A DNA stretch of 64,000 nt from a virus. The position numbers and the translations under genes were made by a program. The DNA is taken from the IMG/VR virus record IMGVR_UViG_3300028829_002978, positions 2,437 through 66,436 of that record. The stretch is one strand, 5' to 3'. The notes under the pieces are model-generated. The model did no database searches. It was not told where the DNA came from and saw only the letters and a list, made by a program, of their open reading frames with translations. Below, in pieces: positions 37,185-41,226 of the stretch; the first letter of the stretch is position 1, and the number at the start of each line of letters is the position of its first letter.

Positions 37185-39638
37185 TTATACAACACCGCTA
37201 TGATAATATTTTTCATAGTCAAACTGGTTAGTATAAAAATCATGTACCGTTAAATCAATTGCTTTAAAGTTAAGTTCAATTGCTTTATACATCATTGCAT
37301 CTACACCATCTATAAAAGGTGGTATATGTTCTATTGTAGCTAACTCTGCTACTTGTGCGGTACTAAAATAATCTATCTCAGTACTAATAGCCTCCTCTAA
37401 TTTACGATTAGCTTCATCTGCAGCTATCTGTGCTCCATGTATATCATCATTTAACACTTGCATCTTATCTTGTGTAATACTCGTGAATGTTTGAGTAAAT
37501 GAAGATACCGCAAATATTATCGTGTTTGCTGTTGTTAAACCTACAGAACCTACATCAAAGGCTCCAGAATACACCATTATTACCACATATATTGCTGTAT
37601 ATATAGCTTTTAATATAGCATTATCAGTAGACTCTAATAGCATTTTAAAAGCATAGGAGGCTGCAAATGTTATTAATAAGGCTTTAACTGCCGCTAAGAA
37701 GGCAGCACTTGTTGCACCTCCTGTAAACCAAGTAACTACAAATATTACAATAGCAATAACATACATAACAATCTTAACAAATTTTCCAAATTTTTCTGTT
37801 TGATAATATTTTAAATGTGTTACTTGTACCGCATATATAGATAATCTTAATGATTTAGCAAATAAATCCATTTGTTCTAAAGGCGTAAGTTTATCAATAA
37901 AAAACTTAGAGATAGGTATAATTAATGTACCTTCAGCTAAAGTACCTGAAGTAGTATTATAGTATTTACCATCTGCAATAAATGTAGTACTAGCTAAATA
38001 TGTAATCTCATACTCAACATATAACGTAGTAGTTATCTGTCTTCTAACAAGTAATGTATCTATTGTGTTTATCTCAGTCTCAATCTGTATTTGACCATTA
38101 GGACCTTCAATCTCAACATCTGTTTCAATATCTTTAGTACCTACTACATTTTCATACGTGTTTATAGGCCCAATACTTCCAGTATTTGTAGTCCTATTAA
38201 ACTCTTTCCATAGTAATGAAGCATTATAAGCACCTTCAATCATTGTTACTGAATAGGATGAGTTATCATCTTTGTATAAAGAAGAATCAACATACACATA
38301 ATCAAATAACTCATATAAAGCCCTAGCTATAATAGGATCTTCTACTCTTGGGTCTACACCAAAATGAATATGGGCTGATGTAACATCTTCTATATCAGGG
38401 CTCTCCTCTATACTTTCTAAAAGTAAGTCTGGATCTAAGCCTATTGTATGTAATATAGATTTTGCATCTAAGTACTCTTCTGATTCTTTGTCTTCTGTGA
38501 TACTTACTTTACTATTTCTAAGAGATATAACCGGAAGCATTTCTAAATTAGTAATCACCTCTGTTGCGTTATCTAGCTCTGTGTATGTACCTAAACCAAT
38601 TTGGTAAGTCCAATACCTAATATCATCAATATTACCTGTATGGTATACCATAATATAATGCAAGGTTGGCTCTGAAGCAGGTACATATAATGTTACTGGT
38701 TCATATGGTTCACCCTCCTCCTCTTCCTCCTCAACAGAATCAACTATCTCAGTCTCAATAGGGACCTCTGTTACTACTGTCTCATCTAAAATTATTATAT
38801 TATTAGGATCTACTTCCTCACCAGGCTCTACCCCCTCTTCAACCTCTTCAACTTCTACTTTATCTACTAATTCTAATGTTACTAGAACATGTGTAGTAAC
38901 TAATTTTGTAATTGCTGGTATAGGTTCAGGTTCAGGGTTAGCCTCAGTAGCCTCTGGGATAGTGTCCGGTATACTAGTAATTGTAACTGTAGTAACTGTA
39001 CGTTGTATTGTTTTTCGACCAATAATAACATCATAGTTATCAGTAGAGTAGTTATAATCAATACTAGTAATGTGATAAACAAAACTATTATATGATAAAG
39101 TATTTGTATAATGAGTATAACCATACTGATTAAATAATACACTTGACACTACTTCCTGTTTTGTTGGTACACTTCGTTTAGCTAATACTTTAGTAGGGTT
39201 CACACCATATTGAGCACTAATAATCGCCAATATTTTAGCAGAAGGTATTGTGTTTGCTTGTAAATTTGTCTCTGGTAGTCCGTGTAAATACTCGTTTTCT
39301 CCATTATAAAAGTAGTTATTATAAGCACCTCTAATATTATTAGAACTTTGTGTAAGTAAGGTAATAATACCAATATCTGTTTTAGCATGAGTAATCGCTA
39401 GTTGTGTTAACATACTAGATATATCTTCAGACTCTTCAAACAGTAATTGGTCATGTACATTTACACTGACTAGGTCTTCTCCTTCAATACCAAATACAAG
39501 AAGTGATTCCCCTATAGAATCCGACATAAAATGTTCAAAATCATCAGATAGTAAGACTAGCCCCCCAGTAAGTGATATTAAAGCCGCACCTGTAAGAACT
39601 TTAAGTCCTCCTACAAGAGACTTACCTATACTACCCAT
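37185..39638 (-). CDS. N4 gp53-like virion/tail protein with an N-terminal MGSIGKS and C-terminal TM helices
   Basis: YLHGLP, MLPVISLR, AHIHFGV and a KYYQTEKF-hydrophobic C-terminus; synteny. Confidence 0.7.
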   Translation of the reverse strand: MGSIGKSLVGGLKVLTGAALISLTGGLVLLSDDFEHFMSDSIGESLLVFGIEGEDLVSVNVHDQLLFEESEDISSMLTQLAITHAKTDIGIITLLTQSSNNIRGAYNNYFYNGENEYLHGLPETNLQANTIPSAKILAIISAQYGVNPTKVLAKRSVPTKQEVVSSVLFNQYGYTHYTNTLSYNSFVYHITSIDYNYSTDNYDVIIGRKTIQRTVTTVTITSIPDTIPEATEANPEPEPIPAITKLVTTHVLVTLELVDKVEVEEVEEGVEPGEEVDPNNIIILDETVVTEVPIETEIVDSVEEEEEEGEPYEPVTLYVPASEPTLHYIMVYHTGNIDDIRYWTYQIGLGTYTELDNATEVITNLEMLPVISLRNSKVSITEDKESEEYLDAKSILHTIGLDPDLLLESIEESPDIEDVTSAHIHFGVDPRVEDPIIARALYELFDYVYVDSSLYKDDNSSYSVTMIEGAYNASLLWKEFNRTTNTGSIGPINTYENVVGTKDIETDVEIEGPNGQIQIETEINTIDTLLVRRQITTTLYVEYEITYLASTTFIADGKYYNTTSGTLAEGTLIIPISKFFIDKLTPLEQMDLFAKSLRLSIYAVQVTHLKYYQTEKFGKFVKIVMYVIAIVIFVVTWFTGGATSAAFLAAVKALLITFAASYAFKMLLESTDNAILKAIYTAIYVVIMVYSGAFDVGSVGLTTANTIIFAVSSFTQTFTSITQDKMQVLNDDIHGAQIAADEANRKLEEAISTEIDYFSTAQVAELATIEHIPPFIDGVDAMMYKAIELNFKAIDLTVHDFYTNQFDYEKYYHSGVV

Positions 39639-40122
39639 CAGTTAATCCTAAATATTTAAACATTTTTTTACCTTTCTCATAGATATCTTCTCTTAGTATA
39701 GTTAATGGTGAACCATGAGTATGATAGGCCCTAATACTTGAACCTGTAGCCATTGATAAAAAGTATTTTAAACCACCTGGGTGTGGTGTAACTTTTATCT
39801 TATGTGCATCATATATTTCAAATATAGTTCTTAAACCGATTAACATACCTGTTACATCTTTTTCAAGATGTATACTTACACCTATATACATATTGTCTTT
39901 CACTAACATATACACAAAACCAATTCGTTTATCTTCTTTAAATATTGCAAAAGCTAAACCTTGCTCTAATGAAGTCACCATATTCTTTTTGTATAGAGGT
40001 AGATAAGTATCTATTAACTTGTCCTCAACTTCAGCTATATCTAAGTCTATTTGGTTTAGGTCTTCAATTTTGTGTACAGTGTATTGAGCTCCTTGTTTAT
40101 TTGTGTAAGACACATGAAGCAT
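39631..40122 (-). CDS. Putative GNAT-like acyltransferase (hypothetical)
   Basis: 163 aa with a beta-alpha-alpha-beta-beta-beta pattern (AFAIFKEDKRIGFVYM); overlaps both the KS and gp53-like genes. Confidence 0.45.
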   Translation of the reverse strand: MLHVSYTNKQGAQYTVHKIEDLNQIDLDIAEVEDKLIDTYLPLYKKNMVTSLEQGLAFAIFKEDKRIGFVYMLVKDNMYIGVSIHLEKDVTGMLIGLRTIFEIYDAHKIKVTPHPGGLKYFLSMATGSSIRAYHTHGSPLTILREDIYEKGKKMFKYLGLTDG

Positions 40123-40957
40123 AAAATCCTCCTAGCCCACTAGCAACACATAATACCTTACCTTGTAGTTTTATATCATCTGCAACCATACATAACTCTA
40201 ATAAACCACTTGATCCTTGACTATGACCAATTTTAGCTTTATAACCTATTACATTAGGTCCAAAGGCTTCGTACTCAGCTTTGTCATTTACTTCAGTTCC
40301 TGTTGCATGACCTTTAACCATATCTGAAGCAGTATACACCTTTTTATATCCCTCTGCTGTTACTAGAAATGGATTATTACTATATGTATAGGATTTCTTA
40401 CAATGACTTACTTCAAACCCTTCTCCTTCTTTAGAGAATACAGCACAAGCAAAACCATCACTGGCTCTTACAGATATTCTATGTTCATGAAATATTCGTA
40501 CAGTATCAAAACTAGTTTTTTCTTCTGTTATTACTATTACATGATCCATCCCAGAATCTAACATTTCTTTAGCTTTTATTATTCCATACATACTACTTGC
40601 ACATGTATTACTAACTATCTCCATATCATTGATCTGTACATCATTTTGTGCAAACAAACTAGTGTACTTATGTGCCATATGGGCTACTAAACCTTTTATA
40701 GCCATAGGACTAGGTAAATCATTATCAAGAGAGTTACTATAGTCTTTTTTACATACTCTATGTTCTGATTGGTGGAAAGAGGCTCCATTAGAGTACACTA
40801 ACCCTACTTTACCTTTCAGCTTAATACTATCTAATTCTTCTTTGAACATTTCCATGTATTGGGGAGTCATATATGCACTTCTATCTAGTTCAGGAATCGC
40901 AATTCTATCTTTGCAATCTTGTGTTGCGTGTTTGTAGAAATATTTAGTTAGAGTCAT
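40097..40957 (-). CDS. Compact beta-ketoacyl-ACP synthase (FabF/FabB-like)
   Basis: Cys-His-His triad in SNTCASS, KGHATGTEVNDKAE and YKAKIGHSQGSSGLLE; ASDG..CAVF; ends SGLGG. Confidence 0.88.
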   Translation of the reverse strand: MTLTKYFYKHATQDCKDRIAIPELDRSAYMTPQYMEMFKEELDSIKLKGKVGLVYSNGASFHQSEHRVCKKDYSNSLDNDLPSPMAIKGLVAHMAHKYTSLFAQNDVQINDMEIVSNTCASSMYGIIKAKEMLDSGMDHVIVITEEKTSFDTVRIFHEHRISVRASDGFACAVFSKEGEGFEVSHCKKSYTYSNNPFLVTAEGYKKVYTASDMVKGHATGTEVNDKAEYEAFGPNVIGYKAKIGHSQGSSGLLELCMVADDIKLQGKVLCVASGLGGFYASCVLHK

Positions 40958-41192
40958 TGGTAACTCTTTCAACGATTGTTTTAATTGTTAAGTCTTCTAT
41001 GCTATTCTTTTCAAGCCATTCAGAGCTAAATCTAGAGTACTTTTCATCTAAGGCTAGCAAAACCATACTAATACCAAAACTATCAACACCACAGTCAATT
41101 AACTTGCTATCAATAGTAATCCTATTACCATGTTCTTCCCTTACTGTTTTATTTATAAAATCCACTATTTCATGTTCTATAAGTTTCATCAT
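40944..41192 (-). CDS. Acyl carrier protein
   Basis: About 82 aa, acidic, four-helix pattern; LIDCGVDSFGISMVLLALDEKY contains the phosphopantetheine Ser motif. Confidence 0.85.
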   Translation of the reverse strand: MMKLIEHEIVDFINKTVREEHGNRITIDSKLIDCGVDSFGISMVLLALDEKYSRFSSEWLEKNSIEDLTIKTIVERVTNDSN

Positions 41193-41217
41193 AATCCCTT
41201 TATATTTTTTATCATAT

Positions 41218-41226
41218 ACTATATCA
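41218..41226 (-). promoter_or_regulatory. Extended -10 promoter upstream of the ACP-KS-acyltransferase-gp53 unit
   Basis: TGATATAGT on the - strand. Similar TGnTATAAT elements occur at 37171, 45349, 56228 and 57037. Confidence 0.45.

Follow-up and report, generated by a model that had tools for sequence, protein, structure and literature searches.

Candidate acyl-transfer cassette encoded between the tail-tube and tail-plug genes of N4-like phages

The window analyzed here is a 64-kb stretch of a 66.4-kb virus record of IMG/VR (IMGVR_UViG_3300028829_002978). Its gene order is that of an N4-like (Schitoviridae-type) podovirus. Between the genes for a tail-tube protein and a tail-plug protein it carries three small genes, which encode an acyl carrier protein (ACP), a compact ketosynthase (KS) and a 163-residue protein with a predicted GNAT fold (p163). 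Dozens of uncultured viral contigs show the same order of tail tube, ACP, KS, GNAT and plug, and the ACP/KS/GNAT cassette is restricted to viral sequence in the collections searched. Because their catalytic sets are conserved, all three proteins are very probably active enzymes or carriers. We tentatively propose that they form a private acyl-transfer pathway, which would be expressed with the late tail genes and whose likeliest acceptor would lie in the tail-plug/ejection module; the more general claim that the cassette serves virion tail assembly or entry appears evenly balanced. The question bears on how the plug and ejection proteins of podoviruses leave the tail and enter the host envelope. 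We found no description of the cassette in the literature beyond the label of auxiliary metabolic gene (AMG) on the ACP of one cultured phage, R22Y.

Catalytic residues and predicted folds of the three small proteins

The first-pass annotation of this DNA recognized the ACP by a GVDS serine motif, and the assignment stands. The motif is present as GVDSFG, and its Asp37-Ser38 pair is invariant in all 28 aligned homologues and in all 40 distinct sequences of a second alignment. Pfam matches are weak (PP-binding, PF00550, E 0.021, 15.5 bits against a cut-off of 20.8; ACP_SdgA_C, E 0.0034), and just 3 of the 28 homologues reach E<=0.01 with PF00550. When the family profile was compared with the PDB, the best solved match was NodF (1FH1, E 6.5e-6), with the DS motif aligned to DSL of NodF; the remaining matches listed were mostly named carrier proteins (ACPs and D-alanyl carrier proteins), with the serine aligned.

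The KS had been described as a compact FabF-like enzyme with an intact Cys-His-His triad, a description supported by both conservation and predicted fold. Cys119, His217, Lys240 and His245 are invariant in 26/26 family members, and comparison of the KS profile with Helicobacter pylori FabF aligned the motifs NTCAS, HGTGTxxND and YKxKIGHxQG with the Cys, His, Lys and His motifs. The family comprises 50 homologues of 275-290 aa at 42-63% identity, without informative source names (two are called 'hypothetical protein'). In Pfam, the KS matches Ketoacyl-synt_C at 24.6 bits (cut-off 20.8) and ACP_syn_III below threshold; the N-terminal KS domain of Pfam was not detected. The AlphaFold2 model (pLDDT 88.1) retrieved FabB, FabF and type II polyketide synthase (PKS) ketosynthases (act KS) in Foldseek, with E-values of 3e-11 to 1e-9 and TMq of 0.59-0.70. 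The protein therefore has a predicted thiolase-type fold, but not the full-length architecture of KAS I/II enzymes (~400 aa). No relative was confirmed in cellular genomes by a non-exhaustive scan of one genome each of 185,579 prokaryote species with two peptide patterns.

For p163, structure prediction and fold searches bear out the GNAT-like topology suggested at first sight. No Pfam family was found in p163, and a single one of 59 family members matches Acetyltransf_1, at E 0.056. Relatives are represented by 67 sequences among 1.84 billion proteins, mostly 157-166 aa long. An AlphaFold2 model built with 59 relatives reached a pLDDT of 94.5 and a pTM of 0.89, and it shows the secondary-structure order of a GNAT, to which a strand is added at the N-terminus and a helix at the C-terminus. 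The top 50 rows of a VIA-align search were all GNATs (Z 11.1-9.2, rmsd ~3-4 A over 123-154 residues). Foldseek returned GNATs as well (probability 1.00, TM 0.40-0.57), and searches of BFVD and the ESM Atlas agreed. An acyltransferase fold, on which the idea of acyl transfer depends, is thus confidently predicted for p163. Among the top structural matches are the N-terminal acetyltransferases Ard1, NatD, NatA, NatC and RimI, with many other GNATs lying within one Z unit of them.

The canonical CoA P-loop of GNATs, [QR]xxGx[GA] after beta4, is missing in 57 of the 59 members, and the matches in the other two are located elsewhere in the sequence. An altered P-loop is described as characteristic of the carrier-protein-dependent GNATs SbzI and FeeM (PMC11685415), and SbzI is among the Foldseek matches of p163 (rank 48, E 3.6e-3). 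The missing P-loop of p163, in a protein encoded beside a private ACP, argues for acyl-ACP as the donor. The near-invariant residues of the family are Tyr14, Tyr44, Met48, Tyr71, Pro113-His114 and Ser123.

Gene order in viral contigs and in the window

An alignment-based scan of IMG/VR gave 49 viral loci with a KS relative (loci are cited by L numbers), whereas a scan with the single KS sequence gave none. The loci were annotated by open reading frame (ORF) calling and phmmer/hmmsearch, and several are cut by contig ends. An ACP lies directly upstream of the KS in 45 of the 49, counting one in which the two are fused (L036), and two of the other four are cut at this place. A match to the p163 profile follows directly downstream of the KS in 32 loci and a gp53 homologue comes next in 31, with gp54-like, capsid and portal genes ahead; two further loci end right after the KS. 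The linkage of the small genes to the downstream gene, which is gp53-like in N4-like contigs, is conserved across many viral contigs. The fusion in L036 (7761-8852) is a single ORF of 363 aa and was seen in one viral contig.

About a dozen loci are not N4-like by our probes (L006, L012, L028-31, L033, L036, L039, L044, L046-49 and L051). These still show ACP, KS, an ORF of 99-180 aa and a larger protein. Exceptions are L012 and L048, which have no small ORF past the KS, and L046/47, in which an 82-aa ORF before the KS gave no ACP match. The small ORFs past the KS in non-N4 loci form a family of their own across seven loci (family B, 128-180 aa), for which no Pfam family was found; hhalign indicated a weak likeness to p163 (probability 30%, E 5.4e-4, colinear over 113 columns) and gave 0.2% against T7 gp13. 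In MW202545, a 57-kb uncultured podovirus that is not N4-like, a tail protein and a 'stabilization protein' are followed by an unassigned 93-aa ORF, a 314-aa '3-oxoacyl-ACP synthase' and an unassigned 146-aa ORF, past which come proteins of 639, 412 and 490 aa and an SLT-domain protein (6018-13724, L054). The 93-aa ORF gave no ACP match at E<=1. The KS unit of this phage precedes genes that presumably encode ejection proteins.

A second scan, seeded with gp53 homologues, gave 31 loci. The full cassette is present in 16 and the GNAT gene alone in 3 whose upstream sequence is present (L073, L079 and L074), while 1 (L086) has no KS but an ACP with an unassigned 139-aa ORF. In 7 loci (L072, L078, L080, L081, L084, L085 and L087) all three genes are missing, and 4 are cut by contig ends. 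An unassigned 152-aa ORF takes the place of the cassette in L078, L080 and L081. The cultured Alteromonas phage R22Y (vB_AmeP-R22Y, PP212876.1, 4877-8404, L052) has gp54-like, ACP (E 1.4e-8), p163-like (profile E 4.8e-23) and gp53-like genes, and no KS; its gp53-like protein begins with MGGLV. The GNAT and plug pair is kept in the reduced forms (R22Y, L073/L079 and L074). In 12 cultured N4-like phages, gp54-like is directly followed by gp53-like without a cassette; the lack of fatty-acid genes between gp54 and gp53, which had been stated for N4, holds for these 12 phages. In Vibrio phage SBP1 the same junction between gp54-like and gp53-like is occupied by an HNH homing endonuclease gene on the opposite strand (L088:2356-2856).

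This distribution bears on the possibility that ACP and KS act as AMGs that boost or redirect host fatty-acid synthesis, as proposed for the ACP of R22Y. R22Y gp30 is annotated as an ACP AMG (PMC11705849), and ACP and KS do have folds of fatty-acid synthesis. However, the genes lie in a late structural operon, they travel with a GNAT gene, and FabA/Z and FabD were not found in the record. Both proteins are also highly diverged from cellular ones, with Pfam scores at or below the cut-offs and no relative of the KS confirmed in the pattern scan of prokaryote species. The fixed place of the cassette in the tail/ejection block of N4-like phages and unrelated podoviruses, its viral restriction and the lack of a KS in R22Y collectively argue against an auxiliary metabolic role, which we regard as very improbable.

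In the window, the ACP, KS, p163 and gp53-like genes form a minus-strand chain with successive overlaps of 14, 26 and 8 nt (Table 1); the ORF listing confirms the four overlapping genes that had been noted. Shine-Dalgarno-like sequences precede the starts of ACP, p163 and the gp53-like gene. The KS ORF spans 40097-40972, and the ATG at 40957 was taken as its start. The genes that define the N4-like order are all on the minus strand, and their synteny was checked against Acinetobacter phage Presley. The G+C content of the window is ~32%, and no near-identical DNA was found in the phage collection. In related loci, the gp52-like protein is matched by phmmer to the ORF after gp53. Downstream of it lie genes for a 551-aa protein, a 911-aa protein and a 2041-aa match to the virion RNA polymerase, all on the minus strand.

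Table 1 Cassette, neighboring genes and promoter-like sequences of the window
Feature	Position	Strand	Remarks
Large terminase	53642-55309	-	
Portal	45459-47414	-	
Major capsid protein	42537-43769	-	
gp55-like	41959-42474	-	
N4 gp54-like tail-tube protein, 230 aa	41255-41947	-	adjoins cassette upstream; phrog_2050 'virion structural protein', E 4.7e-35; Presley gp54 synteny; role as described in PMC13434306
Promoter-like ATGACT-16 nt-TATAGT, TG before -10	41218-41245	-	in the 62-nt gap between gp54-like and ACP genes
ACP, 82 aa	40944-41192	-	Ser38, phosphopantetheine site in GVDSFG
Compact KS, 286 aa	40097-40957	-	Cys119, His217, Lys240, His245
GNAT-fold protein p163, 163 aa	39631-40122	-	without canonical CoA P-loop
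N4 gp53-like tail-plug protein, 817 aa	37185-39638	-	phrog_2220, E 5.9e-54
TGGTATAAT, extended -10-like	37171-37179	-	directly past gp53-like stop codon, read from sequence
gp52-like, 206 aa	36521-37141	-	downstream neighbor, first-ejection-protein position; phrog_2646, E 5.6e-8; same syntenic place as in Presley

Both extended -10 elements that had been proposed to delimit the unit exist as sequences (Table 1), and their role as promoters is not supported. The region holds 19 promoter-like matches against a mean of 30.9 in shuffles, which is fewer than in the shuffles; because the matches are not enriched, these sites are no evidence of function.

Two features outside the cassette were also observed. 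The virion RNA polymerase homologue (25976-34846, minus strand) has just 2041 aa and matches positions 1251-1674 of a PHROG profile of 3406 positions. It is preceded by the separate 911-aa ORF, which has no PHROG match, and the giant virion RNA polymerase may be split into two genes in the window. Just past the major capsid gene is a terminator-like hairpin (42502-42530, minus strand), which has 12 pairs and a T run behind them; Presley is annotated likewise at this place.

N-termini of the downstream proteins and the candidate acceptor

The identification of the 817-aa protein as a gp53-like virion protein is supported by its phrog_2220 match and by synteny with Presley, whose homologue is annotated 'N4-like (gp53)'; tblastn matched 189 phage records, all at <60% identity. 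By homology and by its syntenic position between gp54-like and gp52-like, it belongs to the N4 gp53 tail-plug family. In N4, gp54 is described as the tail tube, gp53 as the tail plug, and gp52, gp51 and gp50 as ejected proteins, and residues 29-56 and 670-716 of gp53 make up a hydrophobic knot by which the tube is corked (PMC13434306). As first noted, the window protein starts MGSIGKS with a hydrophobic segment after it, at residues 11-32; further hydrophobic stretches lie at 616-664 and 674-701. These N-terminal and C-proximal stretches parallel the knot residues of N4. The transmembrane helices that had been placed near the C-terminus are found as hydrophobic stretches and are therefore probably the counterpart of the knot.

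The MGxxxS start of this protein had suggested acylation at Gly2, and covariation of the cassette with an N-terminal MG had been set beforehand as a test. Distinct N-termini of proteins encoded past a cassette or GNAT gene (47) were compared with distinct cassette-less ones (15). Position 2 is Gly in 22, Ser in 17 and another residue in 8 of the cassette-linked set, versus Gly in 11, Ser in 1 and another residue in 3 of the cassette-less set; without four starts that were picked by motif, Gly2 is found in 20/47 and 9/15. Gly2 is thus at least as common without a cassette, and the expected covariation did not appear.

Eukaryote-style fatty acylation of an N-terminal Gly (MGxxxS) in the gp53-like protein is accordingly highly improbable in our view. 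It would fit the start of the window protein, the small residue at position 2 (Gly, Ser, Ala, Pro or Cys) in 45 of the 47 cassette-linked N-termini, and the presence of N-terminal acetyltransferases among the top structural matches of p163, although these are tied with other GNATs. Against it stand the Gly2 counts, the lack of conservation of Ser6 and the enzyme itself. N-myristoyltransferase (NMT) has two lobes and strictly requires Gly2, whereas p163 is a single small GNAT of 163 aa without NMT architecture, so that an NMT-type enzyme is not what the cassette encodes. A small residue at position 2 is compatible with Met removal.

The cassette-less cultured N4-like phages have a conserved start of their own. 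Presley, K479, A38, PEV2 and SP-058 share the gp53 start MGLFS(K/R)KK, and Littlefix has MGWFSSKKK (L001:8113, L053:6431, L089-L097). For VCO139 and Pollock the start is annotated a few codons ahead of the conserved MGLFS, and for SBP1 downstream of the expected place. In these phages Gly2 and a basic patch are conserved, though no phage acyltransferase is present.

A different N-terminal module tracks the GNAT gene. It consists of M-[GS]-[GASD]-[VIL]-[VIL] followed by an acidic amphipathic helix, and its motif is found in 25 of the 47 cassette-linked N-termini and in 0 of the 15 cassette-less ones. The downstream proteins of 639, 359, 300 and 297 aa in non-N4 loci start with the same module (MGGVV.., MGGIV..), MGGVV being the start of the 639-aa protein of MW202545. 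When a profile of gp53 residues 1-75 was applied, the match began at position 1-10 in every cassette-linked row except L021 (from 25). Three proteins of cassette-less contigs match it (L072, L085 and L087), each only from position 28-34, and L054 and the L028 group match weakly from position 1 (E 4.5e-4 and 3e-3). These results suggest that the GNAT gene covaries with the very N-terminal end of the protein encoded next downstream. In the non-N4 loci L006 (9150) and L051 (9118), the downstream protein starts MN(V/S)I..L.YYFTPIKLYGG and continues with a Gly/Ser/Asp-rich stretch, unlike M[GS][GA]VV; the small ORF of these two loci has only 99-103 aa. A complex prediction for p163 with gp53-like residues 2-70, run without controls, gave a score of 0.00 and a mark of 0.32, which speaks neither for nor against binding.

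Based on these findings, we propose a mechanism by which the cassette could act. First, a host enzyme would phosphopantetheinylate the phage ACP. The KS, a shortened enzyme of the KAS I/II type, would then use decarboxylative condensation to build or extend an ACP-bound acyl chain, and p163 would subsequently move the acyl group from the ACP-bound pantetheine onto an amine. The likeliest acceptor would be a component of the tail-plug/ejection module, with the N-terminal module of the gp53-like tail plug as the first candidate. In its most specific form, the proposal is that many uncultured short-tailed phages fatty-acylate their own plug or ejection protein at [Gly/Ser]-[Gly/Ala]-Val-Val after Met removal, by means of an ACP, a mini-KS and a carrier-protein-dependent GNAT; this form is speculative and, on balance, rather doubtful.

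Several points weigh against the proposal. The gp53-like protein is a candidate only, and it is somewhat unlikely to be the acceptor. The start of the window protein itself (MGSIGK) does not fit the motif, and four of the N-termini compared (L044, L046, VCO139 and Pollock) use internal starts that were picked by motif. The cassette-positive and cassette-negative sets are clades, so that the covariation does not represent independent events, and the cassette-negative sample is small (4 contig proteins and 12 isolates). A conserved N-terminus may be a mere structural element, since the nearby residues 29-56 of N4 gp53 are described as part of the knot (PMC13434306). On the enzymatic side, the KS is ~120 residues shorter than normal KAS I/II enzymes (286 vs ~400 aa). 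The record encodes no phosphopantetheinyl transferase (PF01648), FabA/Z or FabD, and loading of the ACP therefore relies on compatibility with the host.

The product could instead be a small molecule or an envelope component, such as an N-acyl amine made in the manner of N-acyl amino acid synthases or NodFEA, or by acylation of the host envelope, which would act in late infection, lysis or superinfection exclusion. The NodF pathway acylates an oligosaccharide, and NodF is the closest solved ACP. The solved carrier-protein-dependent GNATs SbzI and FeeM are likewise described as acting on small molecules (PMC11685415). However, in the 49 loci, as in an unrelated podovirus, the cassette is placed within the tail/ejection block and translationally chained there. 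Covariation links the GNAT gene to an N-terminal module of the protein encoded next, and no other biosynthetic or export genes adjoin the cassette in the window or in the loci examined. We consider this alternative unlikely.

If acylation of a plug or ejection protein were confirmed, it would represent the first pathway for protein lipidation that tailed phages themselves encode, and would explain in chemical terms the engagement of the host envelope by a soluble plug or ejection protein. For N4 and DEV, structural papers reportedly present ejection proteins that form pores and a plug with a hydrophobic knot. The word 'acyl' does not occur in the main text of the N4 paper (PMC13434306). The position of the cassette exactly between the tube and plug genes suggests that some phages add a lipid or another acyl group during tail assembly, which would change the reading of phage ACP genes that are booked as AMGs, as in R22Y (PMC11705849). 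The idea is directly testable, as R22Y, which bears ACP and GNAT genes, is in culture.

Comparison with known systems

The Nod proteins NodF, NodE and NodA of rhizobia are a dedicated ACP, a KAS II-type synthase and an N-acyltransferase. The phage cassette is built on the same three-part logic: its ACP finds its best solved match in NodF, and its KS is of the elongating type with a Cys-His-His triad. The differences lie in the other two components. The phage KS has 286 aa instead of ~400, and the transferase is a GNAT that gave no match to NodA in Pfam at E<=1. With FabB/FabF and the type II PKS ketosynthases, the phage KS shares the thiolase fold and the Cys, HGTGT, Lys and GH motifs, but it is shorter and lacks a detected Pfam N-terminal domain.

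Toxin-activating acyltransferases (TAATs) acylate a membrane-active protein from acyl-ACP, and NMT acylates an N-terminal glycine. For TAATs of the HlyC/CyaC type and for NMT, the likeness to the cassette is one of function only. The strict Gly2 requirement of NMT does not suit the cassette-linked proteins, and neither family is among the fold matches listed for p163, which does not exclude either. The HlyC/TAAT, NodA and LuxI families gave no Pfam match at E<=1 and are likewise absent from the fold matches listed, which again does not exclude them.

The carrier-protein-dependent GNATs SbzI (altemicidin), FeeM and the goadvionin GNAT have in common with p163 a single-domain GNAT fold, a replaced P-loop and a gene beside that of a dedicated carrier protein. 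The goadvionin enzyme is described as joining an ACP-bound polyketide to a ribosomal peptide (PMC8784127). They differ from p163 in that no sequence homology is detectable and in their setting, which is a bacterial biosynthetic cluster rather than a late structural operon of a phage.

A further parallel is offered by internal virion protein A (IVP-A) of podoviruses, the product of a small non-structural gene that heads the plug/ejection block. T7 IVP-A is reported to match acetyltransferases by HHpred and to be needed for morphogenesis, and its gene lies between that of the tubular tail protein B and the ejection genes (Hardies et al. 2016, PMC4819975). The GNAT fold of p163 and its place in the gene order are analogous. 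On this ground p163 could be chiefly a non-catalytic assembly factor for plug and ejection proteins, a counterpart of T7 gp13 or P22 gp14 to which ACP and KS would be an accessory, and its occurrence without ACP and KS in L073/L079 and L074 is in keeping with this. Sequence homology to T7 gp13 was considered and rejected: hhalign of the two families gave a probability of 0.3%, with a shallow gp13 profile of 21 sequences that are >=56% identical, and no PF11090 match was found in the record at E<=10. T7 and P22 also have no ACP or KS beside the IVP-A gene. In addition, the near-invariant His114, Ser123, Tyr71 and Tyr14 of p163 point to a chemical function, and so do the catalytic sets of KS and ACP, which are fully conserved. 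A chiefly non-catalytic role is therefore decidedly unlikely, although it partly overlaps the proposed acyl-transfer pathway, as IVP-A may itself be catalytic. If p163 does transfer acyl groups, the acetyltransferase-like assembly genes of the IVP-A class could be assigned a chemical role that is open to testing.

New in the present analysis are the use of cassette-less phages as a control for Gly2, another motif at the N-terminus, the reduced forms including that of cultured R22Y, NodF as the nearest solved ACP and the negative hhalign result for gp13. The cassette resembles NodF/NodE/NodA and the carrier-protein-dependent GNATs in logic, without being a sequence member of those transferase families.

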